The notes below the pieces were generated by a model. That model searched no databases, was not told the DNA's origin, and was given only the letters and a program-made list of their open reading frames with translations. Shown piece after piece: positions 5,637-45,333 of a stretch of DNA of 64,000 bases. The translations under genes were made by a program, and so were the position numbers. Position 1 is the first letter of the stretch, and the number at the start of each line of letters is the position of its first letter. Source of the stretch: a virus (lineage: Duplodnaviria > Heunggongvirae > Uroviricota > Caudoviricetes); the IMG/VR virus record IMGVR_UViG_3300041411_000102, positions 1-64,000 of that record. One strand, given 5' to 3'.

Positions 5637-5645
5637 AGGCATCCA

Positions 5646-6005: not shown

Positions 6006-6063
6006 TAAGAACTGCCATGCAGACATTTGATTAGTGACGCCATTCACTATATCTCAGATACTT

Positions 6064-6106
6064 AAAAACCCCGCTCTCCGTCAATGGGAGAGCGGGGTTT
6101 TCTTTT
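6064..6106. terminator. Bidirectional rho-independent terminator between the convergent late (+) and early (-) blocks
   Basis: aaaaa-CCCCGCTCTCC-gtcaatg-GGAGAGCGGGG-ttttctttt, a GC-rich 11 bp stem. Confidence 0.85.
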
Positions 6107-6115
6107 GTCTAAGAT

Positions 6116-6562: not shown

Positions 6563-6563
6563 G

Positions 6564-7424: not shown

Positions 7425-7547
7425 TTATTGTTTCTCCTGAAATAGTTTATTAGTCATTTTCCAAACATCCTGATACGTTGCCACTATACCACGTCCAACC
7501 AGATATGCAAATACGATTGCTCCTGTTATTACAAAGACTCCTGTCAT
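7425..7547 (-). CDS. 40 aa single-TM protein, translationally coupled upstream of the SPFH gene
   Basis: Translated by hand as MTGVFVITGAIVFAYLVGRG.... ATGA overlap with the preceding ORF. Confidence 0.4.
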   Translation of the reverse strand: MTGVFVITGAIVFAYLVGRGIVATYQDVWKMTNKLFQEKQ

Positions 7548-7720
7548 CCTTCCACCCCATTGTAAGGTTCATGTTTAGTCGTGTTCATCAAGAAACTACT
7601 ACTTCGTTGATTGACAACCTGTAGTTCGAACTCTTGCTCTTCTTTAGTCATAGGTGACTGCTTACTTTTATACCGACAAACAACGCCGATTGCAACCACT
7701 AATACTGCCCAAATAATCAT
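7544..7720 (-). CDS. 58 aa single-TM protein
   Basis: Translated by hand as MIIWAVLVVAIGVVC.... TAATG overlap with the 7720..7911 ORF. Confidence 0.4.
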   Translation of the reverse strand: MIIWAVLVVAIGVVCRYKSKQSPMTKEEQEFELQVVNQRSSSFLMNTTKHEPYNGVEG

Positions 7721-7911
7721 TATTCTGTCCTCTTCACAACAGATTCAAACATAGTCTTATCACTCTTAGATTCTGTAACCTTATGCTTTACAGCTTCCAC
7801 TTGCAACACTTGTTTCTGTTTATAAACCTGTGAGTCAAGATACACATATCCACCTACTAGCACAACAACCAGAAGGAGTACGCCTGCAATTAGATCTTCA
7901 TAACCTTTCAT
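7720..7911 (-). CDS. 63 aa single-TM protein
   Basis: Tracked ORF. TM 'LIAGVLLLVVVLVGGYVYL'. Confidence 0.45.
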   Translation of the reverse strand: MKGYEDLIAGVLLLVVVLVGGYVYLDSQVYKQKQVLQVEAVKHKVTESKSDKTMFESVVKRTE

Positions 7912-7921
7912 GTTTTAATCC

Positions 7922-8266
7922 TCAAGGGTAACGAATGTATTTAACTTTCTTAGATTTCTCCACAGTCTTTTGACGAGCTGCTTCTTGTTTATCATTCTCT
8001 ACCAGCTCAAGCAATCTGTCAATAATTTTCTTTGCTCGTTCTAGTGAGCCGCGTGGCCCGAATTCATTAGCAAACGCTTCTCTGCTCATGCTATCAGTGT
8101 AGCCCATCCAATCAAGCTTCAAACGTGCAGGATACCAAGACAAAGAATCCTGCCAGACATGTACTTCGGCTGTGTATTCTGTGATGTCAACACCATCGTA
8201 TGTCTTTGTAGTTTGTTTAATTCGTGTTTTCATATTACCACCATAATGATTTATATTTCTGCCCAA
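7922..8266 (-). CDS. Hypothetical protein
   Basis: Tracked ORF in a co-directional block. Confidence 0.5.
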   Translation of the reverse strand: MGRNINHYGGNMKTRIKQTTKTYDGVDITEYTAEVHVWQDSLSWYPARLKLDWMGYTDSMSREAFANEFGPRGSLERAKKIIDRLLELVENDKQEAARQKTVEKSKKVKYIRYP

Positions 8267-8699
8267 AAAGACTCAAACCTTCTTGAACTCTCTTCTCATG
8301 TACATCCATATCAGCATAATAACGAGCTTTCTCTTCCTGATTATCACATTCAATTGTGTAAGGAACTGAGTAACCTTCTTTGGCAATGCCGCCCTCAACA
8401 GGAACCATCTCAAGACTAAAGCTATAGTCTCTCATATCGGGCTCTTTATTCTCAAAAGCATACATCATTTTCTTGATGTCGTCTAGCCAATTTTGTACTT
8501 CTTGATCTGTGACATCAATATCAGGATTAGCACAATATTCACTCGGGACACCTAGACACTTTCCTTCTTTGTTACGTTTCTCCAATACTTCGTGGAAACG
8601 TAAGAGTCCTGCGTAGATGATTGGGGACAGGGTGTGGTCAAGACTGTATGTGTCTCTGTAGCCAAATTGCCACTTACCCTTTCGTTTGATTACTGACAT
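8235..8699 (-). CDS. Hypothetical protein
   Basis: ATG at 8699 gives a TAATG overlap with the upstream gene. The longer tracked start at 8735 overlaps that gene. Confidence 0.5.
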   Translation of the reverse strand: MSVIKRKGKWQFGYRDTYSLDHTLSPIIYAGLLRFHEVLEKRNKEGKCLGVPSEYCANPDIDVTDQEVQNWLDDIKKMMYAFENKEPDMRDYSFSLEMVPVEGGIAKEGYSVPYTIECDNQEEKARYYADMDVHEKRVQEGLSLFGQKYKSLWW

Positions 8700-9070
8700 T
8701 AAATATAGCACTCCGAATAAAGTGTTCCCGGACAATGATCTTCACGGATAATCTGACCAGCAGATTTAGCAATTGGATAAGCTTCTTTGCGAGTTAGGAA
8801 GTTACCATATTGATCTGTGAAACCTTGAATCATCTTATCAAATCCACACCACTCTTGTAAGACCTCTTCCATCATCATAATCTGCATTTCCATGATAGGG
8901 CAGCTATGACGTGTCCCTGTTACAATATATCCATTGTAATTATAGGCTGCTTGGGCAATACGACGTTGGACACCATAATATTCCCATCGGGTACGACCGT
9001 CCTCCATGATGTTACCACGAAGACGTTCTTGGTATTGTTCTACTACAGATTTGATTCGTTCGATTGACAT
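8699..9070 (-). CDS. Hypothetical protein next to the RNR gene
   Basis: The tracked start at 9142 is a TTG. The ATG at 9070 is preceded by a GAGGAT RBS. Confidence 0.45.
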   Translation of the reverse strand: MSIERIKSVVEQYQERLRGNIMEDGRTRWEYYGVQRRIAQAAYNYNGYIVTGTRHSCPIMEMQIMMMEEVLQEWCGFDKMIQGFTDQYGNFLTRKEAYPIAKSAGQIIREDHCPGTLYSECYI

Positions 9071-9368: not shown

Positions 9369-9560
9369 TCAAGCTTTGTTAAGGCAGTTTTTACACATAC
9401 AAGCGTCGTTCAGATCCAACCCTTTACTCTGCACACTGAAGCACCAGCAGACATTCTTTCCTAGCATAATGTCGCATCTAACCGGCATTTCACATCGAGG
9501 ACAAGAGTGAGATACGTTCGATTGTGTACCGACCTTTTCCATTAGTTCAATGTAGTCCAT
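9369..9560 (-). CDS. Small Cys-rich protein, zinc-ribbon-like
   Basis: Nine Cys in 63 aa, including 'CPRC' and 'CKNC'. Confidence 0.45.
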   Translation of the reverse strand: MDYIELMEKVGTQSNVSHSCPRCEMPVRCDIMLGKNVCWCFSVQSKGLDLNDACMCKNCLNKA

Positions 9561-11779
9561 TAAAAGCTAATCTCACATACGCCACCTGCACAGGCTTGAC
9601 TTCCCATTGTATCAACTTCAGTGTAGCTTTGTTGAGAAAGATCTTTGGAGAAGTCCACATCAACGAATTCATTATTGATTCCAACCCATTTGTGCAGATT
9701 GTGACAATCCTTGAGCATAAAGGTAAGTTTCATAACATCCTCATCAAAGTTCTTTTCTGCAAACTTCTTAACTCGACGTACCCAATCTCGTTTCAGCAAG
9801 TCCCGTGCATCATCTGGATCAAGTTTCAATCCAAAACCAAGTGCTGTATCACAAGCCATCCAGAGGTTATTACCAAATGCTTGCAATGCACCAACAACCA
9901 ACCCAGATGCAAACATTGAGCTATCCCCATACATGTCCACAATCTGTTGTGCTGTGAACACTTCAGTGAATGGAGCTTGAGCATATGCACGATCACCCAT
10001 AGAACTGAGAAGAGAGATACCAGCAAACCATTTACGGTTGTTGTAGATGTACTCCTCAACTTCATCCCAATCATCAACTGTAATAGTGTTACTTACGTTG
10101 TGACGAAGATCAGGGTCAACACAAAGTTCGTAGTTAGTACCATGTTCAATCCAATATTGCTGAGCAGTTTTTACATAGTCAAGCTGCTTCACACCCATCA
10201 AATCAGACTTGTAAATACTACCCTCTTTACTTTCAACAGGGAAGCTGACTACAACATCTGTCCCGTTACTACTCCACACAGAAGGCTCAACCATCTTAGG
10301 GTTGGTTTTAGTGATGATACGAGTAACTTCATCACCTACGTTCATCTGTACATTACGGAGATACTTAGGGCTGTGTTCCCCGTGAATACCAGAAGCTGTA
10401 CCAAGAATAACAGAAGCATTACCACTTGGTTTAACTGCTGTGCAGCGAGCAGATTGGTTAATGCCCAACATCTTAGCGACAATTTTATTAATTGCTTTTA
10501 CTTCATTAGCAGCAGCAATCATATTCTCATGGTTAAACATGACATCGGGGTTGTTCATCCAACCAGTCAGACTTACACCGAGCAAAGCCTCTTTCTCTGT
10601 AATTCGTCGTGTTGCATCAGAGAGATATTTAAAGTTTGTATAGCCCGCTTGAAGAGTACCAAGAATTGCACCTGCTTTGGCTACTCGCATCAAAGAAGCT
10701 AGATCAACACACTTACTACCATTTCCTTCGACAAGATTACAGAATTGAAAGCCTGATTCACCATTCTCTGCAACTGGCAACATGCCAATTTCTACGCAAG
10801 GGTTAAAGCAAAACTCTTTGTTCTCTGTGAAGATAAAGCCGGGTTCACCAAAGTCTTTAACAGACTTCATAATGTTAGCCCACTCTTCACGACTCAGTTC
10901 ATCACGTACAAGCATCACAGAGTTATTACTACGACCACGTTGAGGGTTATCAACAAACCAATCACCAGTCTTGGCTTTCAACATCAACTCATCATCTTTA
11001 TCAAACATACAGATGGTTGCAGACCGGCGAACACCACCACTCAAAACAGCATCAGACATGTGCATAACAAAGTCATAGGCTGTGATGGTAGGAACGCTAA
11101 CAGCTTCTGTTTTCCCCTCAACTAGTGCTTCCAGCAACGCTTCACACTTAACCAACGCACTACGCAAACCATCTGGACCGGGAGCCTTAAAACCACCGGA
11201 AATCAAAGCCCCTTTAGGACGAATCTTGTTGAAATCAAAGTGTACTTGGCAACCTTTGTATTCAAGGAAGCTGCCACCATCTACAAAGTAGCTACTGAAC
11301 AGTACACCAAAAGCATCAGCCCAACCTTCAATTGTATCTGGAACTTGGAATACTTTTACTTTCTTCTCATAACGCTTGTGTACTTGTGGAAGTTTTGCAA
11401 TGTGATGGGACTGAACAGAGAAGCCAACACCACAACCACACAGCAGAAGGTACATACACTCTTGAAAGAATGTTGCACGATCACAATGAGATACAGAGCA
11501 GTTATACATACGAGCTTCATGTTTAAACAGTTGCTCACCACCGAACTGCAATGCTCGTTGTGCCCCCAATACAGCTTTGTCTTTGTAAGCTTGTTCTGCA
11601 AAAGCAATATATTCTTCAAGTTCTGGTGTCATTACAGAAGCGTACTTTTGACGGTGCATATTCATTACACGAGAAACAGATTCTTCCCATGTTTCGTATC
11701 CACCTTTAACTTCATCCCAACGAGAATAACCCATGTAGAACTTAGAGGACGACATCATATTTTTGCCAGCGGTATTCAA
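9560..11779 (-). CDS. Ribonucleotide reductase large subunit, about 739 aa, probably the monomeric class II NrdJ type
   Basis: Finger-loop 'NPCVEIGM' and a C-terminal Cys pair. No NrdB seen in the window. The TTG start sits 7 nt after a strong AAGGAG RBS. Confidence 0.7.
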   Translation of the reverse strand: MNTAGKNMMSSSKFYMGYSRWDEVKGGYETWEESVSRVMNMHRQKYASVMTPELEEYIAFAEQAYKDKAVLGAQRALQFGGEQLFKHEARMYNCSVSHCDRATFFQECMYLLLCGCGVGFSVQSHHIAKLPQVHKRYEKKVKVFQVPDTIEGWADAFGVLFSSYFVDGGSFLEYKGCQVHFDFNKIRPKGALISGGFKAPGPDGLRSALVKCEALLEALVEGKTEAVSVPTITAYDFVMHMSDAVLSGGVRRSATICMFDKDDELMLKAKTGDWFVDNPQRGRSNNSVMLVRDELSREEWANIMKSVKDFGEPGFIFTENKEFCFNPCVEIGMLPVAENGESGFQFCNLVEGNGSKCVDLASLMRVAKAGAILGTLQAGYTNFKYLSDATRRITEKEALLGVSLTGWMNNPDVMFNHENMIAAANEVKAINKIVAKMLGINQSARCTAVKPSGNASVILGTASGIHGEHSPKYLRNVQMNVGDEVTRIITKTNPKMVEPSVWSSNGTDVVVSFPVESKEGSIYKSDLMGVKQLDYVKTAQQYWIEHGTNYELCVDPDLRHNVSNTITVDDWDEVEEYIYNNRKWFAGISLLSSMGDRAYAQAPFTEVFTAQQIVDMYGDSSMFASGLVVGALQAFGNNLWMACDTALGFGLKLDPDDARDLLKRDWVRRVKKFAEKNFDEDVMKLTFMLKDCHNLHKWVGINNEFVDVDFSKDLSQQSYTEVDTMGSQACAGGVCEISF

Positions 11780-19372: not shown

Positions 19373-19886
19373 TCTTCAATACCTCCCTTACAGCATCTCG
19401 CCTAGCCTGTGGATTCTTAGCAACCTTAATTCCTCGGTCACTAAGCCATTTATCAATTTGTGCAGCTTTCATTTTCATAATAATTAATACCTCTTTTTCA
19501 ACAAACGCAGATTGGATGTCAATCCCCAAACGTTGACTTAGAGAAACCGCCGCGTGGCAGTCAGGACACAACTCTCTGATATCATCGAACGTGACCCATA
19601 GTATCATTTTAGACCATTCACAAAAGCTTGTCCAGTCTTTAAAGCCATATCCGCCATGTAGGTGGTCTACCTCGCAAGATCTGTGTTGCTTACCACACAT
19701 TTCGCAGTCTGAAACCCAAACATCTTTACCAAACTTACCTACGGGAGCCTTGTAGCGGCGAGACATCTTGTAAGCAATTTTCACAGGTGCCCTAGACCAG
19801 ATACGTCGAATCTGAGAGCGAAGCCAATTGAAGTAAGCTTTTTCATCCTTGAAAATATGAGGTACATCATCCCAAGGGTTACTCAT
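19359..19886 (-). CDS. Endonuclease VII-like His-Me finger protein, a possible Holliday-junction resolvase
   Basis: 'CEMC-x9-VDHLHG-...-LCPDCH' matches the T4 endonuclease VII pattern CxxC...DHDH...CxxC. Confidence 0.45.
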   Translation of the reverse strand: MSNPWDDVPHIFKDEKAYFNWLRSQIRRIWSRAPVKIAYKMSRRYKAPVGKFGKDVWVSDCEMCGKQHRSCEVDHLHGGYGFKDWTSFCEWSKMILWVTFDDIRELCPDCHAAVSLSQRLGIDIQSAFVEKEVLIIMKMKAAQIDKWLSDRGIKVAKNPQARRDAVREVLKNGLD

Positions 19887-20815
19887 TCCAAATACCTACC
19901 CATATCCCACTTATCTTTATGTTCTCTTAGAAGGTAAAGAAAGAATCCGTTTTCATTCAAACGATCTTGCCAGTCCTCTTCCCATGCAGCGGAGTAGCAC
20001 TCATAAACTCTTTGTGCCAAATCACGCTCAGTTTTACAGTCAGCAAGTAGCTTCACAGATGTTGCTGGACCTACGCCTTTAACTTTAATCCCAAACCGCT
20101 CTCTTGTGATATCGGAGAGCTTTTCAATACCGGGGATTGCATCAGCCCCGTCACCAGTTAGGAGTTGTGTAGCAAAGTTATAGGACTGTTGGAATCCGTC
20201 GTTCCAAAAGATTCCTTTCTCTGGTTTAAAATAATTGTGTATCCAACCACGAGAATTTGCAAACAGATCTTTATCACAGGCCGAAAGAATAACATTTGCA
20301 TCGTCTTTATTTTTAGACTTTAAAGCCTTTGTGTAACTTTCCCAAGCGTAGATGTTGCACACATCGTCAGTTTCTTTTGATACAGCTTCAACCAACTGTG
20401 CTTTATACTTCTTGGTGACAAACTCCCTACACTCTTCAAACAATAAAGGTTTAGGTGGGCGACCTGACTTGTACTGAACATATTTCGATTCAAAGTCTTT
20501 ACGGAAGTTCCCTTCACCTTCAATACAAATTTTATAGTCTGTACAATCAGTTGCGTCAAGAATGTTCTCAATCTTTTGTTTGATTGATTGAAATGCAAAT
20601 CTTGTTTCACCGATTACAGAGCTAATTGTTTGAAACTCAAATTCATCTTTAGCCCACTTGTCTTGTGATTTAATCCAATCATTGAAAGCTGTCTTTGAGT
20701 CAAACAGCTTCTCACGACCCGATGCTTTGTGGATAACATTACATTCATTCTTTTGATGCATTGCTGCTGAACTATACACGATCGTATCCGTATCTAGTAC
20801 TAAGAGCTTTGACAT
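19883..20815 (-). CDS. 5'-3' exonuclease / flap endonuclease (T7 gp6/FEN-like)
   Basis: 'TGDGADAIPGIEK' plus an H3TH motif 'GVGPATSVKLL'. N-terminal PIN-like acidic residues. Confidence 0.75.
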   Translation of the reverse strand: MSKLLVLDTDTIVYSSAAMHQKNECNVIHKASGREKLFDSKTAFNDWIKSQDKWAKDEFEFQTISSVIGETRFAFQSIKQKIENILDATDCTDYKICIEGEGNFRKDFESKYVQYKSGRPPKPLLFEECREFVTKKYKAQLVEAVSKETDDVCNIYAWESYTKALKSKNKDDANVILSACDKDLFANSRGWIHNYFKPEKGIFWNDGFQQSYNFATQLLTGDGADAIPGIEKLSDITRERFGIKVKGVGPATSVKLLADCKTERDLAQRVYECYSAAWEEDWQDRLNENGFFLYLLREHKDKWDMGRYLE

Positions 20816-23742: not shown

Positions 23743-25887
23743 TTAGTGGATCTCAGAATACCGCTTACCTGATTGAGTCTCGCACCCCAGCAGTCGTCTC
23801 AGTTTATATGTTTCATTTACTTTGTCAACTGCTTCTTTGATGATTTTAGTGAATTCTGCTTTAAATTTATCGCTGTCTTTCACGCACAGAATGCACTCAT
23901 CATGAAATGAGCCTGTCAAAGTTTTATTTCCGTATCGCTTTTCTGTTTCCGTGAGAATATTATCAACCCACATATCAAAGAAATATGAGCCTGTCCCTTG
24001 TGCCAATGTGGAGAATCGATCTGACTCTTTACGAAGTGCATAGCAAAATCCATTGATAGGATTTACAAGCCACTTATGTCCACGGCTGTCTCGGATTACA
24101 CATTGATCCTCTGCAATAGCCTTTACAGACCAATTAAGTTTCCAATAAGCCTCATGCAAAGCTTTACCTTCTTTCAGGCTTACACCTGCTGCCTGTGCGA
24201 TCTTAGCAGCTCCTGCGTTGTACACACTTGCATAGTTGGTAGTCTTACCTTTCTTACGGGCAGCTTTAGCATTTGCAGACTTAATTCCTTTCTTAAAGTC
24301 TTCATACTCTTTTCTTGTCACCATACCAGCAGTAAGAGCCATCAAAATATGTGGATCGTAGTCTTCTTCTTGCATTGTAGCTACATACTCAGGGTCATAT
24401 GGTAGCATAAGGCCATGTTTCACACGATCCTCCAGCGAGGACATATCGCTGCCAAGTAAGCACTTACCATCGCCAGCAATTAAAACCCCACGAATTTCCT
24501 TTCCATATGCCTTGTCAATCCCGGCCAGATTTACCAGTTCCCGATGCATTACACGCAAAGTATTAGTAAAGCCACCAATACGAGCTTGCAACCACTTCCC
24601 ATTCTTCAGGTCACGGATAAACCCTTTAATTACCCCTAGTCGATGTTTGGCTACGTTGTACTCCGCATACTTACGAATTTCTGGAACTTGCTCAGCCAAC
24701 TCTAATACGGATTCACACAACTCTTTACCATCGTCGCCGCCAACTGTAATCTGAGGAATTGCACGCTCTTCAGGTTTGCTATCTTTCCATTCAGTCCACT
24801 TGCTGTGATGACTGCCTTCTTTTGGTTTTCTGGCAATCCAAGCATTAAACTTTTCTTCATCCTTCTCATACTTGAAACTGATTGGCGACCAACCATGAGA
24901 ATAAAGTAGGTTTTTCACTTGGATAGGTGATGATGCACTTGGTTCCTCGTAACCGTTTAATACCTTAAAAACCCCCTTAACTTCTGTTGTTTGCACCCGC
25001 AAAGTACCGAACTCATCAACCTCTTGAGCTTCAAACACTTCCATCAACTCTTTCCACTTAATACCAATTGCAGAAAGAGAGCCGTCCTTCTTGAAAGGTT
25101 TCTTTGGAGCTTCCTTTTTCGTATATTGAGGAACTTTAGGCATAGCACTTTCAAGTTCATCTTTTGCTGCATTACAAATCACTTCAAGTTTGGCTTCTGT
25201 TTCAAGGAGTAAGTCAACGTCAACTTCCCACATTGTCTTCTCTTGAAGCCTTGCACAATCCATCTTAAACATTAGGAAAGTCAGAAGACGATTAATATGC
25301 TCTTCTACAGACAATCCTACAAGGGCATCAATTGCCAACACTTCACTATCAGAAATCCTTTTGCCACCAACAGCTCCAGCATCAATCTCTGTCTTGGCTG
25401 TTGTGTAGATTTCAATCAGACGTTTTTTAAGATCCTTCCAAAGTGCTTGGTTAATCTCAACGTCCTTGATTACTCGATTTTCATACACTTCATAGGGTTG
25501 TTCATTCCAATCCTCAACTGCTGGTTTCTCAATTCCATAATCCTCATGGAATGTACCCAAGCCATGAGTTCGTCTCTCAAAATTCAGATACCAACTGACG
25601 GCCAAGGAATCAATCAACATCAACTTTGACAAATCAATATTGAAAAGCTTTTCCATCAGCGGTACGTCGAATGAGATGCCATTGTGCATTACAATAGGAA
25701 TTTCATTGTCAATGTGCCATTGGAAGAACTTAACAATGCGCTCTGACTCTGTTGCCCCATTAAAAACTTTTACTTCCTTCATATTCATCTGGAAACCAAG
25801 AACATGAAGCTTTGTGGCTACATCTAGGAAGCCGTCACTTTCCAAGTCTGCGACTGTTGCTTGTTTCCAGTTATAAATATTTTTCAA
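23743..25887 (-). CDS. Family-A DNA polymerase with 3'-5' exonuclease (T7 gp5-like)
   Basis: Exo I 'DLESDG' and Exo II 'HNGISFD'. Polymerase motif A 'GSDMSSLEDR', motif B 'RKKGKTTNYASVYNAG' and motif C 'SFHDEC'. Confidence 0.85.
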   Translation of the reverse strand: MKNIYNWKQATVADLESDGFLDVATKLHVLGFQMNMKEVKVFNGATESERIVKFFQWHIDNEIPIVMHNGISFDVPLMEKLFNIDLSKLMLIDSLAVSWYLNFERRTHGLGTFHEDYGIEKPAVEDWNEQPYEVYENRVIKDVEINQALWKDLKKRLIEIYTTAKTEIDAGAVGGKRISDSEVLAIDALVGLSVEEHINRLLTFLMFKMDCARLQEKTMWEVDVDLLLETEAKLEVICNAAKDELESAMPKVPQYTKKEAPKKPFKKDGSLSAIGIKWKELMEVFEAQEVDEFGTLRVQTTEVKGVFKVLNGYEEPSASSPIQVKNLLYSHGWSPISFKYEKDEEKFNAWIARKPKEGSHHSKWTEWKDSKPEERAIPQITVGGDDGKELCESVLELAEQVPEIRKYAEYNVAKHRLGVIKGFIRDLKNGKWLQARIGGFTNTLRVMHRELVNLAGIDKAYGKEIRGVLIAGDGKCLLGSDMSSLEDRVKHGLMLPYDPEYVATMQEEDYDPHILMALTAGMVTRKEYEDFKKGIKSANAKAARKKGKTTNYASVYNAGAAKIAQAAGVSLKEGKALHEAYWKLNWSVKAIAEDQCVIRDSRGHKWLVNPINGFCYALRKESDRFSTLAQGTGSYFFDMWVDNILTETEKRYGNKTLTGSFHDECILCVKDSDKFKAEFTKIIKEAVDKVNETYKLRRLLGCETQSGKRYSEIH

Positions 25888-25899
25888 AACTTAGCTCCT

Positions 25900-27609
25900 T
25901 TATAGTGAGTCGCCTTCCCACTCATATTGGAGGAGAAGACCTGTATCTTTTTGGTACTGAGTTTTAAACTTATCTTCCCCGCCGTATGTACGGTTTTTAA
26001 TACAAGAAATAAAGCTATTAGATTTCAAATCTCCTTGGGCATGCTTGTTACGCTCAAAGCCCATGATCACAGAGAAGGCACGCATAATACCACGACTGCC
26101 TGTCAGTTGGGAAGCCAAAACTTCACCACCATTTTCATGGTCACGAGAATCTTTTCCTTTTGGGGGATTCAAGTGGCTATACAAGTCAATGTGAATATCA
26201 AGCTCTGCTGCAAGGTTAGCCAACTCACTCGACCATTTGTTAATAAATTCGTTAGCTTCCCCACTTGTTAGATGGTCTACCAAACGAGTCATGTTGTCGA
26301 GTGCGTGGAATCTTACCCCATACTCCATTGTGTTATAACGGATAGCTTTAACAATCTCCTCAATATTAAAGCGATTGTGTGCAGCTTGTCCATCACTTTC
26401 CCACAAGAACAGTTTACCTTCAAGACCATAGGCTGTCTCTAGGTACTGTTCTCGGTGCAGCTCATGAATAGCCGGGACATGGTAAGGAATACCATCAATT
26501 TTACCTGCCATGTTGTAAAGTGTAGATTTGTTTGATTCTTCCAAAAGAATAGCAAATACTTTTTCGTTATGCTCTGTAATGTTGTGTGCATGTTTCATGT
26601 GGGCAATCAGTGTTTTACCCAAACCAACACCTGCTGCTGTACAAGATGCCTCACCAAATACTTGACTGCAATTAATGTCTGTCAGAAACTGCCAAGGATA
26701 CGACAAGCCCGGTTTAGGTGGGGTGTCATCACGAGACATTACAGTACTTACACCAACAACACCCTCAGTCACTGGTTTCGCACTTTTCCAAATACAGAAA
26801 TCAGCAAACAAGTCCCCATCACCTTTCAACAATGCTTCGTTAGCATCCTTGGCGTTAGTTGGGTAAACAGCAACTTTTACATCTGGAAGAATTTTCTGTA
26901 CATCTTTTACAGCTTTCTTACCAGCTTCATCGTTATCAAAGACTAGCACTGTCTCTGTAAAAAACTTATCAATCTCTTTACGCATACGCCCAAGAGTTGT
27001 TACAGCACTTCCAACACCGTGGGGCAAACTTACAACTGCAAACTTATTCCACTGACTTTTACGTTTGGCCGCATGAGCCTCTAGCATCATCTCTAGTGCT
27101 CGACAGTCATTTTCGCCTTCCGTCACATACAAACGTTTTACACCAGACTTCTTGGCAATCTCCCAGTTAAATAGATCAGCACCTTTAATATCACCAATAG
27201 ACCACATTGCCTTTTTATCGAGCATAATAGCTTTGTAGCCTACAAGCTTACCCTCAAATGTATAGGGGAAGTTTAGAGTGAACGGTGTTTTACCATCATA
27301 TTCACTGTAAGCCAACTTTACGCCAGAGCGAGCAAAGTACTCTGCTGAAATACCCCGATGATCCTCACGAGGAGACTTGAGATTACGAATCTCTTGAATC
27401 TCTTCTTCAATTTCATCTTCACTTTTACGCTTTGGGGGCTTAGGTTGTTTTCCATTATATGGATCAAAAACATACGCCTCAAGGCCACGAGCAGCACAGG
27501 AAAAACAGTATCCTGTAAAGATGTTTTTGCCATCATCGTAAAAAACTTGCAAACCCTTGTCAGACGTGCAATGTGGTACATCATGTTTCAATCGTTCTAC
27601 ACAGGCCAA
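25900..27609 (-). CDS. Bifunctional primase-helicase (T7 gp4-like)
   Basis: N-terminal Cys4 zinc ribbon, TOPRIM 'VTEGENDCRAL', and DnaB-type Walker A 'GVGLGKT'. Confidence 0.85.
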   Translation of the reverse strand: MACVERLKHDVPHCTSDKGLQVFYDDGKNIFTGYCFSCAARGLEAYVFDPYNGKQPKPPKRKSEDEIEEEIQEIRNLKSPREDHRGISAEYFARSGVKLAYSEYDGKTPFTLNFPYTFEGKLVGYKAIMLDKKAMWSIGDIKGADLFNWEIAKKSGVKRLYVTEGENDCRALEMMLEAHAAKRKSQWNKFAVVSLPHGVGSAVTTLGRMRKEIDKFFTETVLVFDNDEAGKKAVKDVQKILPDVKVAVYPTNAKDANEALLKGDGDLFADFCIWKSAKPVTEGVVGVSTVMSRDDTPPKPGLSYPWQFLTDINCSQVFGEASCTAAGVGLGKTLIAHMKHAHNITEHNEKVFAILLEESNKSTLYNMAGKIDGIPYHVPAIHELHREQYLETAYGLEGKLFLWESDGQAAHNRFNIEEIVKAIRYNTMEYGVRFHALDNMTRLVDHLTSGEANEFINKWSSELANLAAELDIHIDLYSHLNPPKGKDSRDHENGGEVLASQLTGSRGIMRAFSVIMGFERNKHAQGDLKSNSFISCIKNRTYGGEDKFKTQYQKDTGLLLQYEWEGDSL

Positions 27610-30560: not shown

Positions 30561-30806
30561 TCACAGCATCAGGAAATTGTTTTCACCAAGATCAAGAGTA
30601 ACAGCGCTCTCTGTTTCAATCCAGACCTTGGCACCACAGCTCAGAGGTTTATCAGGACTATACACAACCTTACTGGGTCCGTCAATAAAGACCTCGTGTG
30701 CATAGTCATTTGACTTGTATGTCTTGACTGTCAGTGTTGGGTTGTTCTCCCCATTCTTAGCGTTAGCCTTGATGACATGTTGATTAACGTGGATAATTGT
30801 TTTCAT
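30561..30806 (-). CDS. Hypothetical protein
   Basis: Tracked ORF. Confidence 0.45.
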   Translation of the reverse strand: MKTIIHVNQHVIKANAKNGENNPTLTVKTYKSNDYAHEVFIDGPSKVVYSPDKPLSCGAKVWIETESAVTLDLGENNFLML

Positions 30807-30946
30807 TGCTGCCCAGCCTCCAAACTAATTAGGTATGCACAAGCATCACCGTATTCTATGAACTGCATCAGTAGGGTACCATTTTCGTAGACGCCGTATC
30901 TCCACGGCCTGTACCACTTATCAAGATCTCTGATTTCGTATTTCAT
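30803..30946 (-). CDS. Small protein of the W-x-V/I-R-D/E-L family, paralogue A
   Basis: ATG at 30946 (MKYEIRDLDKWYRPWRY) in an ATGA overlap. Similar to the ORFs at 31186 and 31401. Confidence 0.45.
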   Translation of the reverse strand: MKYEIRDLDKWYRPWRYGVYENGTLLMQFIEYGDACAYLISLEAGQQ

Positions 30947-31065
30947 CCTAACACCCTGTCTACTAAATAGGCCAGTATGAAGACGCTGATGGTGGACAGA
31001 AGAAGCCCTAGACAAAGCTTAACACGCCTGTTCTTTTTAAGATTCTTGAATTTCCAATGATTCAT
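30943..31065 (-). CDS. 40 aa single-TM peptide
   Basis: MNHWKFKNLKKNRRVKLCLGLLLSTISVFILAYLV. Coupled by ATGA overlap. Confidence 0.35.
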   Translation of the reverse strand: MNHWKFKNLKKNRRVKLCLGLLLSTISVFILAYLVDRVLG

Positions 31066-31185
31066 TTTGCAAGACCCTCCATCTTTTTGGTGTACTCTGC
31101 ATTGTGTTCGATCAGCACAGGACGTATGTACGCATAAGCCACCAAATAAAATATTACAAAACTCAGTAGGGCTACGCATAGCATT

Positions 31186-31404
31186 CTAATCCACATGTCC
31201 ACACTCCTTATTAGGACAGAAAATTGTGCAGACACCCTTAACCATCAGATGTGTGCAGCATTTATCACAATACAATCCGGTCTTCTGTACTCTGTCGTTC
31301 ATGAACCTGTAGGCAGCTTCAATGTCTTCAAATTCTGCAACAATCTGGTCTTCCTTATATACAGAGTATTTCCAACCCCAGTCCCTTACTCTCCAAGTCT
31401 TCAT
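31186..31404 (-). CDS. Small protein family paralogue B, with a C-terminal Cys-rich extension
   Basis: 'MKTWRVRDWGWKYSVYK...' followed by 'CDKCCTHLMVKGVCTIFCPNKECGH'. Confidence 0.5.
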   Translation of the reverse strand: MKTWRVRDWGWKYSVYKEDQIVAEFEDIEAAYRFMNDRVQKTGLYCDKCCTHLMVKGVCTIFCPNKECGHVD

Positions 31405-31613
31405 TTGAAAACCTCCAATTTACCGGTAGAACCGAAATTCTCGCAGATGGTTCTCACCAAAGCATCCTCTTCCTCATCCATTTTTGCAGCGTTCATGAAT
31501 TTATAAGCTTCAACATCACCTTCAAACCTAGCTACAATCATCCTGTCTTTGTGCACAGCAAAGCGGTAAGGTCTGTGCCATTCGTGTAGCTCTCTGACTT
31601 CCCAACTGGTCAT
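31401..31613 (-). CDS. Small protein family paralogue C
   Basis: 'MTSWEVRELHEWHRPYRFAVHKD...'. Confidence 0.5.
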   Translation of the reverse strand: MTSWEVRELHEWHRPYRFAVHKDRMIVARFEGDVEAYKFMNAAKMDEEEDALVRTICENFGSTGKLEVFK

Positions 31614-32068: not shown

Positions 32069-32215
32069 TCAAGGGTGCCAGTAATCAAAATCTTTCTGCT
32101 CTTGTACCTTCTCATAGACCTTGTCAGCTTTTTCACAGTCTTCGCAATACTCTTTATAGTAGACTCCGTGCTGACATTCATCTGGATTGTAACAATCATC
32201 CTCGTAATCGTCCAT
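32069..32215 (-). CDS. 48 aa Cys-rich protein, the first gene of the minus early block; missed by the ORF cutoff
   Basis: Verified codon by codon as MDDYEDDCYNPDECQHGVYYKEYCEDCEKADK.... Strong AGGAGA RBS. Confidence 0.45.
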   Translation of the reverse strand: MDDYEDDCYNPDECQHGVYYKEYCEDCEKADKVYEKVQEQKDFDYWHP

Positions 32216-32411
32216 ACATTTCTCCTAACATTATTGGTTCACTTCAGATACACCAATCTTACCCCTCACCAGCCCTCTGTCAAGGGTAATTTTACAAATT
32301 ACGCAATGATTTAAAAATATTCTCTAGGCTATCAATTCAGGGAAAACCTCCTTGGGCATATTCCTTTGGTACGTTCATTTAGCATATGTCAGAGGATTTT
32401 TCGAAATTGTG

Positions 32412-32440
32412 TTGACAGCATAAGCTGATGACGTTATCCT
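32412..32440 (+). promoter_or_regulatory. Sigma-70-like early promoter for the plus early block
   Basis: TTGACA-N17-TATCCT lies about 30 nt upstream of the AGGAG RBS of the first + gene. Confidence 0.45.
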
Positions 32441-32468
32441 AGGCACATCAACCAATGAGGAGAGTATC

Positions 32469-32630
32469 ATGAAACTGGAAACCAAAGACCGTAACCTTAC
32501 CGCAGAAGAGTGGCAGGCTGTACGTGATGAAGCTGAATTTATTGCTACGTATAAAGGCTATTCGTTTAGTGATGCTATGAAAGCAGCAGAAGAACGTGTC
32601 CGTAAAGCTGTTGGGAAAGAAATCAAATGA
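32469..32630 (+). CDS. First early gene (53 aa), missed by the ORF cutoff
   Basis: AGGAG RBS. Verified by translation. ATGA overlap with the next gene. Confidence 0.5.
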   Translation: MKLETKDRNLTAEEWQAVRDEAEFIATYKGYSFSDAMKAAEERVRKAVGKEIK

Positions 32631-33087: not shown

Positions 33088-33299
33088 AAGAAAAGACACA
33101 TATTCTCTAAACATCCCAAACAAAAGATAAATTTACTTGCACCTGAAGTCTGAGATATGAGACAATTCACTTATGAATTTGAGTGACAGTGCTTGACTTT
33201 TGAAATTCAAATTCCATCAAAAATGGCTACAGCCCTTATGGGACGTGGCCTTGAGGGCATTTATTTGTCAATGTGTTTCTTTATATAGAGAGATGATGT

Positions 33300-34625
33300 A
33301 TGGATGTAGAGGAAGAATGGAATACCTACAAGATAGACGAGGATAAATATGAGGTAACAGCTAACAATAAGATGGTATATAATGTAATCAATACTAGGTT
33401 GCTTGTATACGATATTGCTATCAAGAGAGATGTATCTGAGAAGGTTAAGAGATTAGAGTATAAGGAATATAACACCTTAGCTTGTATCATCTATAACCTT
33501 ATTTCTTGTATTCGTAAGAATAGAAAGCTTGTGTATTCCCGCAATACAGCAGAGAAATGCAAGAACAAGAAGAAGATTACGGTGTACAAAGTAAAGAAAG
33601 TGGTTGACTGGCTTGAGCAACAAGAGTATATTGTCAACTTTATTGCACCACCATCTAAAGAAAAGGATGAACGTAAAGTGAGTTATATCGTCCCCACACT
33701 GAAATTCGTAGAAGAATTCTGTGATTCAACAGAAGTCCAGCGTATGGCTGAGCTTGCATACCAAGAAGCCTACGCTTACATTGAACTTCGTAATGAGGAT
33801 AAAGAACCTGTTCCTTTCCGTAATACAAAGCAAACACAACGACTTGAAGCTGTAGTTAAGAAGATCAATCTACTGAATGACATCTGCACAGTACGCGATA
33901 AGTTTGGAAATGTATTGAACAACTTCTATTGTCGGGTATTCAATAATGATTTTGGGCATGGTGGTCGTTTCTATCGTGCAGATGTCCTACGATTGCCACA
34001 CAGTGAAGGTCGTCTAGGTCGATATGATATCACTATCAACGGAAACCCTGTAGTTGAGGTGGACTATGGTAATTTGCACTTTCGTATAGCCGCAGTTCGT
34101 GAACATATCAATCTGGACAATGTTGCATCTGATGTGTACATGGGTATCCTTGAACAGCATGAAAAGACAGACTCTAATCGTGCAATTGTCAAGCTCGCTG
34201 TAAACATCATGTTGAATTCACTTGATAGTGATAATGCTATTGCTGCAATCCAGAAAGAAATTAATTTCAAATTCAATGGAAAACAAGACCTCCCACTTAA
34301 GACAGGTACAGAAGTTTTCAACCGAGTGAAGAAAGCCTATCCTGAATTTGAGAATGTTTTCTGTAATGGTGATGGCTATGGCAGCGTGCTACAGAATTAT
34401 GACAGCGAGCTAGCTGCCTGTGTTCTGGATGTAATGTCTAGTAAAAATATTCCTTGCCTTCCTGTCCACGACTCATTCATAGTAGAGCAGCAGTATCAGC
34501 GAGTCTTGGAAACTGCAATGGGTGAAAGTTTCCGTAAACTATTTCAGGTTGACGTACCTGTTCCTGTTGGTGTAGGTTATAGGGATGAGTTTGGTGTAGT
34601 TCAAGAATATAAAATTATTGTTTAA
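33300..34625 (+). CDS. Minimal family-A (Pol I-like) polymerase-domain protein, 441 aa, with no exonuclease domain
   Basis: Three motifs in Pol-A order and spacing. 'VDYGNLHFRIAA' resembles DYSQIELRI (motif A). 'SNRAIVKLAVNIMLNS' resembles RRxAKxxNFGxxYG (motif B). 'LPVHDSFIV' resembles VHDE (motif C). Confidence 0.4.
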   Translation: MDVEEEWNTYKIDEDKYEVTANNKMVYNVINTRLLVYDIAIKRDVSEKVKRLEYKEYNTLACIIYNLISCIRKNRKLVYSRNTAEKCKNKKKITVYKVKKVVDWLEQQEYIVNFIAPPSKEKDERKVSYIVPTLKFVEEFCDSTEVQRMAELAYQEAYAYIELRNEDKEPVPFRNTKQTQRLEAVVKKINLLNDICTVRDKFGNVLNNFYCRVFNNDFGHGGRFYRADVLRLPHSEGRLGRYDITINGNPVVEVDYGNLHFRIAAVREHINLDNVASDVYMGILEQHEKTDSNRAIVKLAVNIMLNSLDSDNAIAAIQKEINFKFNGKQDLPLKTGTEVFNRVKKAYPEFENVFCNGDGYGSVLQNYDSELAACVLDVMSSKNIPCLPVHDSFIVEQQYQRVLETAMGESFRKLFQVDVPVPVGVGYRDEFGVVQEYKIIV

Positions 34626-34631
34626 GGAGAG

Positions 34632-35609: not shown

Positions 35610-36104
35610 ATGAATATCTTTGTCACCAACATTTGCCCAATCAAATCAGCACAAGACCACTGTGATGTCCATCTGAGGAAGCTCTGCGTTGAGGTAGCAC
35701 AATTATTGTCAACAGCACACTTTGTTCTAGACGGCTCACAAGTTGGTTACAAACCTAGTCATCAAAACCACCCGTCAAATATCTGGACCCGCTCAACCTC
35801 AGCTAACTACCAATGGCTTTATGCTCACTTCAAAGCCCTCTGCTCAGAATACACATTCCGCACAGGAAAGATTCATAAGACATCTGAGCTACTAAGTGTG
35901 CTAGATAAGCTGCCATGCAATATCAAGAAAGCTGAGCTTGACCCATTCGCTATGTGTATGGATGATGAGTATAAGCGCTTGGGGATTTTTGATCAGACGA
36001 TTGCTTACAAAGCCTATCTTCGTGAGAAATTCCGTGAGTGGGGTTGCAGGGAGAGACCGATTAAGGTACAGTGGACAAATAGAAATCAACCGGAGTGGGT
36101 ATAA
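35610..36104 (+). CDS. Possible DenV-like pyrimidine-dimer DNA glycosylase
   Basis: The N-terminal pattern resembles T4 endonuclease V: 'MNIFVTNICPIKSAQDHCDVHLRKL' against '[24 protein letters not shown]'. Weak. Confidence 0.3.
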   Translation: MNIFVTNICPIKSAQDHCDVHLRKLCVEVAQLLSTAHFVLDGSQVGYKPSHQNHPSNIWTRSTSANYQWLYAHFKALCSEYTFRTGKIHKTSELLSVLDKLPCNIKKAELDPFAMCMDDEYKRLGIFDQTIAYKAYLREKFREWGCRERPIKVQWTNRNQPEWV

Positions 36105-37417: not shown

Positions 37418-37686
37418 ACAGAAAAGCCTTTGAACAATTCTTCCAGAAACCAGAAGGCTTCTTCTGGGATAACGAATTGCAAATGTATTATGAACACAAG
37501 GATTATCGTTTCAAATATCCTCTTGAAGCTATTGGTAATTTCAATCAGAAGTGGATGGGTTGGTTAGCTGCACAACAAGTGGCTCAGAACGGCTCGGAAT
37601 ATACATACACAGGAACAGGTAGCGATTACCTCGATTGTGTTTTAGGTGTCGGTGGTTTTGAACAGTATGGTCCTATTGACAAATGA
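37414..37686 (+). CDS. Hypothetical protein whose C-terminal 20 aa are duplicated downstream
   Basis: Ends '...DYLDCVLGVGGFEQYGPIDK'. Confidence 0.5.
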   Translation: MNRKAFEQFFQKPEGFFWDNELQMYYEHKDYRFKYPLEAIGNFNQKWMGWLAAQQVAQNGSEYTYTGTGSDYLDCVLGVGGFEQYGPIDK

Positions 37687-37883: not shown

Positions 37884-37972
37884 AAGAGTTTAAGAAAGCA
37901 GATTACTTGGACTGTGTTTTAGGTGTTGGTGGGTTTGAATCGTTTGGTCCAATTACAGGAGATGGGAAATGA
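37880..37972 (+). CDS. 30 aa mini-ORF duplicating the tail of the 37414 gene
   Basis: MKEFKKADYLDCVLGVGGFESFGPITGDGK, ATGA-coupled at both ends. Confidence 0.3.
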   Translation: MKEFKKADYLDCVLGVGGFESFGPITGDGK

Positions 37973-41835: not shown

Positions 41836-41928
41836 CATCGGAGAGAAAGTAGTCCTCCAAAGTAAACTCTTATCAGAACACAACTCTCTGATATCATCGA
41901 AGCCATCATTGAAGCTAATGAAGATTTT

Positions 41929-44490: not shown

Positions 44491-45333
44491 GTGAAGAAGA
44501 AACGCATCAAATACTGTAACTCAACAGATATCGGAGCCATTGGCAAGACAGATCAAGGTAGTTTTGAGGTTGTCAGTCAGGACAAACCTCGTTGGTACAC
44601 TGTTAAATTTCTGGTGACCGGCTACACTAAAAGTGTTCGAAAAGATTACCTTGTTGAAGGTTCAATGACTGACCCCTACTTCCCGAGCAAATATGGTGTT
44701 GGATATCTTGGGGAAGGTCCATATAAGACAACATCGGACATTGTGAGGGCTTGTGGCACAAAATACAAAGCTACACCAGAGTACAGTCGCTGGAATTCAA
44801 TGATGGGGAGGTGCTATCAGTTAGCCAACACCGAGTATCTTAGATATGGTGCATTAGGGACTTATGTTTGTGAAGCGTGGCACAACTTCCAAGTGTTTGC
44901 TAAGTTCTTTGATGACAATTGGACAGAAGGATTAGACCTAGATAAAGACATTCTAGTTTATGGTAATAAATGCTATAGTCCAGAAACATGTGTGTTTGTG
45001 CCTAAATATATTAACAATTTATTAGTGCATACTAAGAATGTTTTGAATGGTTATCCTGTTGGTGTCTATTACCAGAAACAGGGACCAAACATGGTTAACC
45101 CGTTGAGGAAGCCTTTTACATCCGAGATTGACAAGAAGAACCTAGGATTTTACGTTACTCCACAGGAAGCCCATAAAGCTTGGCAAGAAGCAAAGGCAGA
45201 CAAAATCTTCTCATCTGTCAATAGGTATTCTGAAGAAAAATTCTTTGACTCGAGGGTTGCGGATGCGCTACTATCTAAAGCATGGAAGCTGAAGACAGAT
45301 GCTCAGCTTGGGATTGAAACAGTAAGATTGTAA
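44491..45333 (+). CDS. Homing-endonuclease-like protein, paralogue 4, GTG start
   Basis: 'GLDLDKDILVYGNKCYSPETCVFVPKYINNLLV'. GAGGAAAGAG RBS. Confidence 0.55.
   Translation: MKKKRIKYCNSTDIGAIGKTDQGSFEVVSQDKPRWYTVKFLVTGYTKSVRKDYLVEGSMTDPYFPSKYGVGYLGEGPYKTTSDIVRACGTKYKATPEYSRWNSMMGRCYQLANTEYLRYGALGTYVCEAWHNFQVFAKFFDDNWTEGLDLDKDILVYGNKCYSPETCVFVPKYINNLLVHTKNVLNGYPVGVYYQKQGPNMVNPLRKPFTSEIDKKNLGFYVTPQEAHKAWQEAKADKIFSSVNRYSEEKFFDSRVADALLSKAWKLKTDAQLGIETVRL

Follow-up and report, generated by a model that had tools for sequence, protein, structure and literature searches.

Why a phage that already carries a complete family-A DNA polymerase (DNAP) should encode a second, minimal one is the question raised by IMG/VR virus record IMGVR_UViG_3300041411_000102 (Caudoviricetes). 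Positions 1 to 64,000 of this record, hereafter the window, were analysed. An earlier note, made from the sequence alone, had singled out an open reading frame (ORF) of 441 aa at 33300..34625 on the plus strand as a polymerase-like protein, and this ORF (protein start MDVEEEW) was found at that place. The complete polymerase reported elsewhere in the window was also found, at 23743-25887 on the minus strand; it matched PF00476 (E 3.5e-13) and carries an RNase H-like exonuclease. Sequence comparison makes it nearly certain that the ORF product belongs to divPolA2, a family named in 2024 (Yutin, Tolstoy, Mutz, Wolf, Krupovic, Koonin; Virol J; PMC11348598). The protein joins an N-terminal winged-helix-like domain to a minimal family-A polymerase, and it has no exonuclease domain, just as the earlier note had it, and no 5' nuclease domain either. 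The answer put forward here, tentatively, is that it may be a site-specific initiator primase-polymerase. The specialised DNAP, the priming polymerase and the small RNA polymerase listed in the earlier note are all retained as candidates.

Membership of divPolA2 was assigned by profile and structure searches. A hidden Markov model (HMM) of close relatives of the ORF (alignment A1, 58 sequences) matched both prototypes of the family by hmmsearch, namely the barbavirus protein Barba18A gp034 (E 5.3e-29) and AUR84708 (E 1.6e-19), which is encoded by MG592441.1. With a broader family HMM the E values were 9.5e-56 and 1.2e-45, respectively. A Foldseek search of BFVD returned the Barba31A protein at E 5e-20, and canonical phage PolAs only from 1e-7. 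The ORF is therefore assigned to divPolA2. Matches to the ORF family were found by tblastn in 115 barbaviruses. The size and architecture also fit divPolA2, that is about 430 aa with an N-terminal globular domain and an active palm but no exonuclease, and the protein occurs in addition to a regular replicative DNAP, here the PolA at 23743-25887. The family is accordingly not novel. A description of it was published in 2024, with functional guesses that are essentially those of the earlier note, a repair DNAP or an RNA polymerase (RNAP) (PMC11348598), and it was probably known from 2008 as part of TV-Pol. No second paper using the name divPolA2 was found in the literature searched.

The divergence of the family is evident from the sequence searches. 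The only family match of the ORF was PHROG 4756 (unknown function; E 1.6e-49). A Pfam scan gave nothing above threshold and a single sub-threshold SWIRM match; PF00476 (DNA_pol_A), being below its gathering threshold, was not matched even at E<=10. For the ORF and the distant members, sequence searches of Pfam, NCBIfam, PDB sequences and PADLOC likewise gave nothing above threshold. A database clustered at 90% held 851 relatives, none of them named, and those in annotated phages (80-145 kb; hosts Vibrio, Aeromonas, Pseudoalteromonas, Shewanella and Rheinheimera) were all called hypothetical protein. A profile of 58 relatives retrieved 7,124 cluster representatives (50% identity) at E<=1e-3 and 4,332 at E<=1e-10. 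The function of divPolA2 is of interest because the family is this large and is present in model phages such as ICP1.

The polymerase core was examined in an AlphaFold2 (AF2) model built on alignment A1. The mean predicted local distance difference test score was 84.9 and the predicted template modelling score 0.81, with disorder only at residues 1-27. All 29 best Foldseek matches in the PDB were family-A DNAPs or mitochondrial RNAPs; Aquifex Pol I ranked first (7.7e-7), followed by apicoplast Pol, Pol theta and Taq and then by the mitochondrial RNAPs. The Pol-A palm and fingers folds suspected in the earlier note were thus the best structural matches. In the palm the aspartates of motifs A and C end adjacent beta-strands, as in family A. 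The three motifs on which the suspicion had been based are present, VDYGNLHFRI at residues 254-263, RAIVKLAVNIMLNS at 294-307 and PVHDSFIV at 388-395. The spacing from A to B, given as about 40 residues, is 39; that from B to C is 96 and not about 105.

For a profile alignment, 56 PolA sequences were used (E. coli Pol I 520-928, T7 gp5, the PolA of the window and 53 diverse IMG/VR PolAs). HHalign with alignment A1 gave a probability of 87% (E 4e-6, 206 columns), and with a 188-sequence family alignment 94.3% (E 1e-7, 210 columns). All three motifs were in register with Pol I in the former run, and motifs A and C also in the broader one. The structural reading of the earlier note is thus borne out, since neither of the two outcomes that it had named as refuting, a best match to a non-polymerase fold and motifs that do not align to the catalytic residues, was obtained. 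Motif A, VVEVDYGNLHFRI (residues 249-263, 34044..34088, plus strand), contains the catalytic D255. In both runs D255, H260 and R262 were aligned to D705, E710 and R712 of E. coli Pol I (VVEV-D255-YGNL-H260-F-R262-I versus IVSA-D705-YSQI-E710-L-R712-I), which places H260 at the steric-gate position. Motif C, CLPVHDSFIVE (residues 386-396, 34455..34487, plus strand), has D391 at a beta-hairpin turn between strands 387-389 and 392-396, and H390-D391-S392 corresponded to H881-D882-E883 in both runs (PVHDSF versus QVHDEL). The O-helix, or motif B (residues 291-306, 34170..34217, plus strand), is a helix in the model and carries the R-x3-K signature of incoming-triphosphate binding; R294 and K298 were aligned to R754 and K758 in the A1-based run only, and the broader run shifted this segment, so that its register is less certain. 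Upstream of these, the beta-hairpin YCRVFN..GGRFYRADVL (residues 209-231, 33924..33992, plus strand) was aligned to TGRLSS..PNLQNIP of Pol I, with GGRFYRAD..VLRLP facing TGRLSSTDPNLQNIP of the E. coli enzyme. At the C-terminus VPVPVGVG was aligned to VPLLVEVG. The distance between the catalytic aspartates is 136 residues compared to 177 in Pol I, the fingers being shortened.

Conservation was counted in the 188-sequence alignment, in which overall identity is 22-55%. D255, D391, K298, R223, E253 and Y280 are invariant (188/188), and H390 (187), G222 (187), N306 (184), R294 (184), S392 (184), H260 (183) and D278 (179) are nearly so. Since the catalytic residues are invariant across sequences so divergent, the enzyme is almost certainly active. 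The same counts bear on the proposal that the protein regulates by binding DNA and that its polymerase-like domain is catalytically dead. Such a regulator would explain the pairing of a winged helix with a dedicated operator-like site described below, and also the missing Pfam PolA match. It would not be expected to retain the metal-binding Asp pair, the Lys and Arg for triphosphate binding and the Arg that contacts the template in (nearly) every one of 188 sequences, and this explanation is considered highly improbable.

Residues ~134-250 comprise a reduced thumb region and the beta-hairpin corresponding to the Pol I TGR motif (GGRFY). The ~130-residue thumb of Pol I is replaced by ~65 residues in a short helical region (residues ~134-208, 33699..33923, plus strand). 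It has two helices, 144-157 and 177-195, at the position of the Pol I thumb in sequence; in HHalign, similarity to Pol I is picked up only from residue 200-209 onwards. The 2024 paper states that a homologous thumb is absent in divPolA2 (PMC11348598).

The nucleotide-binding pocket is unusual. The O-helix aromatics (F762 and Y766 in Pol I, Y639 in T7 RNAP) and the steric-gate glutamate E710 are absent; N302 and N306 occupy the positions of F762 and Y766 in an ungapped helix register, and H260 that of E710. The loss of the aromatics, together with the reduced thumb, would suit short, non-processive synthesis. The pocket varies within the family. The gate residue is His in the ORF, Trp in barbaviruses and Glu in AUR84708 and ICP1 ORF100.1, and the latter two keep E, Y and DE at the pocket positions. 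His260 and the HDS motif were considered as an RNAP-like mark of the whole family; this idea was dropped, as other members have Trp or Glu and FDE or YDE.

These features are relevant to a possible role as an accessory DNAP for repair, gap filling or translesion synthesis on primed substrates, in which case the winged helix and the dyad would do nothing but autoregulate the gene. In sequence the ORF product resembles Pol I-type DNAPs more than T7 RNAPs, a T7-like RNAP profile giving an HHalign probability of 2.5% (77 sequences of low diversity; effective number of sequences 2) against 94%. The C-terminal VP..V.VG is Pol I-like, the gate residue is bulky in all members mentioned (His, Trp or Glu), and a repair enzyme is one of the two options in PMC11348598. 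Yet the O-helix has no Tyr/Phe to position the nascent base pair, and it is not obvious why repair should require a domain that binds DNA sequence-specifically. Taken with the evidence from paralogs and neighbours given below, such a role is regarded as less likely than that of an initiator, but as the next most probable.

The N-terminus turned out to be less obscure than described. The earlier note held that its 230 aa resembled nothing, and the N-domain of divPolA2 was called unlike any known domain in PMC11348598. In the AF2 model residues ~30-132 (33387..33695, plus strand) look like a winged-helix-type DNA-binding domain, with the topology alpha-beta-alpha-alpha-beta-beta.

A candidate target for this domain was found directly upstream of the gene. 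In relatives the gene typically follows a non-coding gap of 130-350 bp. From 74 IMG/VR loci, leaders were aligned for the closer subfamily only (proteins 38-89% identical; alignment A4). A conserved leader element of ~85 nt, 33213..33296 on the plus strand in the window, accompanied every gene copy in this subfamily. With an nhmmer profile of the element, each of 38 loci gave a single match (E 3e-18 to 5e-7), which in every case adjoined the gene on its 5' side. In the 64-kb window the match at 33213-33296 was the only one (E 6e-13), the next best having an E of 0.57, and the element is therefore not a general phage promoter. In the distant members Barba18A, Vibrio 1.063.O, HNL01 and ICP1 nothing recognisable was found, and the element is therefore claimed for the closer subfamily only (protein identity of at least about 38%).

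Within the element lies a dyad, CTACAGCC-N13-GGCCTTGAG, at 33227..33255 (consensus CTnnAnnC-N13-GnnTnnAG), whose half-site centres are ~21 bp apart. Of 30 sequences, 25-30 retain each of the four symmetric conserved pairs, and in 16-20 the variable pairs are unpaired. The covariation score was 0.128, below the mean of shuffled alignments (0.168), and 489 of 500 shuffles scored at least as high as the observed alignment. RNAalifold predicted no structure for the leader dyad. The leader cassette matches itself on the minus strand and is inverted in three of the related loci (L171, L191 and L166; L numbers denote individual loci). A hairpin in RNA or single-stranded DNA was considered and rejected, as neither covariation nor an RNAalifold structure was found. 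Because the symmetry is conserved without pair covariation, no RNA structure is predicted and inverted copies occur, the dyad is a putative protein-binding site and not a hairpin. The bare pattern CTnnAnnC-N13-GnnTnnAG is unspecific on its own (2 matches versus 0.84 expected) and carries weight only within the full profile and at this position.

The dyad is followed by an AT-rich spacer (33256..33282, plus strand) and an ATAT box (33283..33286, plus strand), which is invariant or nearly so in 30 leaders (columns 88-91 of A4). A purine-rich, Shine-Dalgarno-like stretch comes next and then the start codon at 33300. Measured from T56, the ATAT box follows after 19-20 nt (12 leaders) or after 29-31 nt (18 leaders) and never at a distance in between, so that the two length classes of the spacer differ by one helical turn. 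Counted from its centre, the dyad is ~30 or ~40 bp upstream of the box, a distance that would fit a promoter-proximal operator and with it the accessory DNAP described above.

A dyad and ATAT box with a polymerase gene behind them could also be the promoter of a small single-subunit RNAP, recognised by its winged helix. From there the enzyme would direct transcription of its own gene, as an autogene, and of the arm that the gene heads, and its transcript might also prime replication, much as a T7 RNAP transcript primes replication at the T7 origin. It would be by far the smallest single-subunit RNAP known. However, the element occurs once in 64 kb, and neither a genome-wide T7-style phage promoter nor a long multi-copy repeat was found in the window. 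T7-type promoters are rigid, unlike the two spacing classes seen here, and sigma-70-like promoters are present in the region. The sequence profile shows no similarity to T7-like RNAPs, and T7 RNAP has Gly at the steric-gate position, where divPolA2 members have a bulky residue. The lack of a repeated promoter and the bulky gate residue make an RNAP less likely, and we judge this role to be unlikely.

The gene and its leader were found to be mobile together. When the window was compared by blastn with the relative at L174, whose protein is 89% identical, nucleotide identity of 84% extended over exactly 33093-34627, and no similarity was found in the flanks, 6 kb upstream and 3 kb downstream of this module (33093..34627, plus strand). 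On this comparison leader and gene move together as one module of ~1.5 kb. The 74-aa ORF downstream is not kept even in this 89%-identical relative, and around the relatives no conserved neighbour gene or MP-like partner was found.

Such sharp boundaries between unrelated flanks are what a selfish cassette would leave behind, i.e. a 1.5-kb module of the TV-Pol transposon-virus type whose polymerase copies and spreads it among phages with little benefit to them. The variable neighbourhoods, the one to three paralogs per genome, the allelic replacement at a single locus in ICP1 and the relatives in integrase- and IS (insertion sequence)-rich bacterial islands described below point the same way. 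Against this, no recombinase, terminal repeats or target duplications were seen at the phage copies, and gene-boundary mosaicism is ordinary in phages. That catalytic residues are strictly conserved over 7,124 clusters, and that the gene keeps a fixed place with respect to the strand switch, suggests that it serves the phage. A purely selfish module is considered improbable.

The position of the gene suggests a connection to replication. In the window a divergent intergenic region (32215..32469) lies ~0.8 kb upstream of the gene; the coding strand switches here, and sigma-70-like promoters point both ways (TTGACA-17-TATCCT, plus strand, 32412-32440; TTGACA-16-TAAGAT, minus strand, 32283-32256). 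The cumulative GC-skew has its minimum at ~32 kb, beside the gene. With many small ORFs following the divergent promoter region, a role of this region in early expression and host takeover is plausible. The gene also comes just after the divergent junction in L164, L166, L171 and Barba18A, and in L171 and Barba18A it heads the arm containing the primase-helicase and DNAP. An 83.9-kb phage contig has two paralogs, one heading the terminase/portal arm and the other the arm with a Toprim-DnaB primase-helicase and DNAP; their leaders share an 18-mer in opposite orientations.

Two paralogs were found on four contigs in all (CAZTDV010000007.1 with L164/L170 and L171; L176 and L185; L194 and L196; L184 and L198). 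A GTDB scan with subfamily-specific patterns recovered four phage contigs in metagenome-assembled genomes. GTDB places CAZTDV010000007.1 in a 'Sediminibacterium' bin, although its terminase and portal genes clearly mark it as phage. Phage genomes with two paralogs are ~84-93 kb, and the copies are ~30 kb or more apart, each with its own leader element; in one genome the core of the element has opposite orientations in the two copies. Variable neighbourhoods, and sometimes two to three paralogs per genome, are on record for divPolA2 (PMC11348598), and the present family agrees with this; the window has a single copy, no second one being found in its 64 kb. Two to three paralogs per genome, as well as the integrase-linked relatives below, would be odd for a repair enzyme. 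The accessory DNAP could draw support from a pyrimidine-dimer glycosylase like DenV/T4 endonuclease V encoded 1 kb downstream (35610-36104, plus strand; PF03013 E 2.2e-6, PHROG 624 E 8.6e-54), but this neighbour is not conserved: a DenV-like gene is near the homolog in only 3 related loci.

ICP1 provides a member of the family in a phage with a mapped origin. All ICP1 isolates have one family member at the same locus, in two allelic forms (L251 and L252). The allele ADX88600 (495 aa, family HMM E 3.6e-52) has a His/Asn/HDA pocket, and the allele ORF100.1 (434 aa, family HMM E 3.5e-44), which is preceded by a HigA-like gene, a Glu/Tyr/YDE pocket. Depending on the isolate, the locus is at ~52.7-54.2 kb or ~59.6-60.9 kb. 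In CRISPR-positive isolates it lies at ~58-61 kb and coincides with the mapped origin region, the early bidirectional theta origin having been placed by coverage 'near the 60 kb position' (PMC7145576; PMC9040626). That pockets of the E/Y/[FY]DE and H/N/HD[SA] types are swapped at one ICP1 locus suggests that they do one common job. It also speaks against an RNAP, as members with the full DNAP-type E/Y/DE set replace those of the H/N/S type there. An acyl-carrier-protein-like gene was observed just upstream of the family member in both ICP1 and Vibrio phage 1.063.O.

Relatives in bacterial mobile elements connect the family to TV-Pol, which was defined in 2008 for minimal PolA-like enzymes found in transposons and viruses (Iyer, Abhiman, Aravind; Biol Direct; PMC2579912). 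Their thumb consists of two helices, and they have an Arg in a beta-hairpin, a pair of Asp in the palm and an Asp with RxxxK in the fingers; they lack nuclease domains, sometimes have an N-terminal accessory domain, and are predicted prim-pols (PMC2579912). The four core features, namely the hairpin Arg, the palm Asp pair, the fingers Asp with RxxxK and the lack of a nuclease, are all present in the ORF family. The hairpin (strands 211-215 and 222-225) bears R223 (188/188), aligned to the Arg of Pol I TGR, and the fingers have D278 (179/188), R294 (184/188) and K298 (188/188). The two helices 144-157 and 177-195 of the AF2 model are in the right place for the thumb, as judged by sequence position only.

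By tblastn against plasmids, relatives were found in Thioclava (2e-13) and Paracoccus (1e-7). The Paracoccus relative (~510-619 aa) is directly downstream of a lambda-type integrase, among IS elements. In HHalign its match to the family spanned both domains (query residues 58-424; probability 100%, E 1.2e-51), and its probability against the PolA profile was only 17%. Its homologues are all hypothetical proteins of Rhodobacterales on chromosomal contigs of up to 400 kb. Since the Paracoccus relatives match the architecture (TV-PolN type), taxonomy and neighbourhood described in the 2008 paper, divPolA2 is likely, on these comparisons, to be the branch of TV-Pol that bears an N-domain. A link to an integrase or transposase, present for Paracoccus (integrase) and Thioclava (IS21), is absent in the window and in the phage relatives, and no D5-type helicase or recombinase was seen beside the phage copies. 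An RNAP would be of no use to mobile elements made of an integrase and this gene.

Ma-LMM01 gp030 is taken as a TV-Pol here by our own assignment, as it adjoins transposases; it belongs to a different PHROG from the ORF. It matched the family weakly by HHalign (E 1.6e-3, probability 16%) but in the correct register, and shares D-x4-H, VK..N and HDG with the ORF family. The family HMM gave no match on the first 50 kb of Ma-LMM01.

Two of the bacterial loci are worth describing. At L250 (Paracoccus versutus pBEN 1251412-1266020), ORFs 4697-5911 and 5921-7780 encode an integrase (DUF6538 and Phage_integrase) and a protein with winged helix and polymerase, both unannotated. Around this two-gene unit lie a TerB-domain gene and two IS (rve) copies that are identical to each other; the unit is a candidate self-replicating integrative element. 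At L168 (Thioclava electrotropha pTElox9), a 311-aa family copy without the N-terminal domain is found at 7845-8780, 70 nt after IS21 istB and adjoining a cluster of AbiEi/AbiEii and methyltransferase-helicase genes. A truncated copy within an island of defence genes or mobile elements is the probable interpretation.

The initiator reading, which we hold tentatively, would bring these observations together as follows. The protein would be made early from its own leader. The dyad accompanying the gene, CTnnAnnC-N13-GnnTnnAG, would be bound by the winged-helix domain, probably in dimeric form, and the polymerase domain of the bound protein would come to lie one or two helical turns away, over the neighbouring AT-rich/ATAT segment. 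Here the polymerase would start or extend a short nucleic-acid chain, which would be handed to the T7-type replisome of the phage, i.e. the PolA at 23743-25887 and the adjoining Toprim/DnaB primase-helicase at 25900-27609. The same dyad binding would autoregulate the gene. Binding of the dyad by the winged helix, de novo initiation, the use of the dyad as an origin, and DNA or RNA as the product are steps that we infer.

Several observations led us to this reading. A winged-helix-like domain occurs together with a gene-specific, phased dyad beside an AT-rich stretch, and leader and gene form one sharply bounded module without a conserved partner. The gene lies beside a strand switch and a GC-skew minimum, and it heads replication arms in relatives. 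The integrase-linked Rhodobacterales relatives have a TV-Pol prim-pol context, CCPol-MP is a precedent for such an activity, and the ICP1 homolog coincides with an origin. The polymerase has also lost features on which processivity and fidelity depend.

A number of points weigh against an initiator. The functional roles of all divPolA2 members are predictions, and the 2024 paper favours a repair DNAP or an RNAP (PMC11348598). With a Toprim primase-helicase already encoded by the phage, there is no evident need for another primase. As a site near a promoter, the dyad might be no more than an operator for autoregulation or for a third party. The winged-helix assignment rests on the topology in a predicted model, and the leader element is not recognisable in the distant members, ICP1 among them. 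The origin of ICP1 is known at the resolution of a coverage peak only, and origins often coincide with strand-switch regions anyway.

If divPolA2 is an origin-specific primase-polymerase, it would explain how theta replication starts in phages with a T7-type replisome. It would also be the second Pol I-derived primase after CCPol-MP, and a portable cassette of origin plus initiator. A bolder and decidedly speculative extension would be that divPolA2 is a third kind of initiator-primase, neither DnaG nor archaeo-eukaryotic primase, with a Pol I-derived core tethered by a winged helix to a private dyad and firing the theta origin of a phage or mobile element. The co-varying His/Asn/HDS and Glu/Tyr/DE pockets would then be versions for RNA and DNA primers, and the 1.5-kb module a portable origin that is swapped. 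The new material makes the function of divPolA2 a directly testable question, and the dyad and the winged helix are concrete reagents for the first experiments.

Further features of the window were recorded. Genes in the leftward arm for a class II (B12-dependent)-like ribonucleotide reductase (9560-11779, minus strand; weak match to the RNR-II insertion domain) and a flap endonuclease (FEN)/5'-3' exonuclease-like protein (19883-20815, minus strand) would, on sequence similarity, complete a T7-style module for replication and nucleotide metabolism. Beside the divergent junction, 30803-31613 on the minus strand holds 3-4 tandem paralogous genes for ~70-aa proteins with the motif W.(V/I)R(D/E)...W..PY...V...G......F, e.g. 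MKYEIRDLDKWYRPWRYGVY.., MKTWRVRDWGWKYSVYKE.. and MTSWEVRELHEWHRPYRFAVHK... The 29-nt repeat TCAGGACACAACTCTCTGATATCATCGAA occurs at 19561-19589 and 41873-41901 (97% identity), 22 kb apart in oppositely transcribed arms, and a weaker third copy is present at 44571-44597 within an HNH endonuclease gene; the repeat might be a shared gene fragment or a site related to homing endonucleases. In the rightward arm a 54-nt direct repeat (37624-37677 and 37901-37954; 83% identity, 277 nt apart) probably reflects two tandem paralogous small genes.

Compared to the divPolA2 of the 2024 paper, the partner DNAP is PolA here and PolB there, and the steric gate is His in the ORF subfamily instead of Trp or Glu (PMC11348598). 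The leader dyad, the integrase-linked bacterial relatives and the ICP1 origin coincidence are not described in that paper; together with the winged-helix assignment, the phasing of the gene-specific dyad and the module boundaries they are what the present analysis adds. Pol I Klenow and T7 gp5 resemble the ORF in that DYxxxxxR, the TGR hairpin, the O-helix R-x3-K, HD and the C-terminal VP..V.VG align. They differ in having a 3'-5' exonuclease and a thumb of ~130 residues compared to ~65, and in the residues Y766, F762 and E710, which are replaced in the ORF. The T7-type single-subunit RNAPs, including the small heterodimer N4 RNAPII, show no profile-level similarity to the ORF. The ORF is one third to one half of their size and lacks the specificity loop, the N-terminal promoter-binding domain and the C-terminal FAFA; its steric gate is bulky, and its genome has no repeated promoters.

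TV-Pol has the same minimal family-A-like core, with the invariant Arg in the beta-hairpin, two palm Asp, the fingers Asp and RxxxK and no nuclease. Its optional N-terminal domain also fits, as does its distribution over phages and elements linked to an integrase or transposase (Rhodobacterales, Vibrio and other bacteria). It differs in that direct homology to the ORF is weak (Ma-LMM01 gp030 only), and the phage copies have no D5-type helicase or recombinase beside them. The only characterised TV-Pol is CCPol of SCCmec, which together with the OB-fold protein MP is a DNA primase-polymerase (Bebel et al., eLife 2020, PMC7581432; Rice 2023, PMC10061031). The arrangement of a PolA with a single-stranded DNA-binding protein (PolA-SSB) seen in CCPol-MP was not found in the window, since the arm has no conserved small partner gene and no Cch-type helicase or recombinase. 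CCPol keeps the equivalents of E710 and F762, where the ORF has His and Asn, and its DNA binding is provided by the separate MP, where in the ORF it would be provided by a fused winged helix. The initiator reading of divPolA2 otherwise resembles CCPol-MP: both would be PolA domains without exonuclease, encoded on mobile elements, that need an added DNA-binding module to initiate, and CCPol-MP primes at a preferred site beside its own operon.

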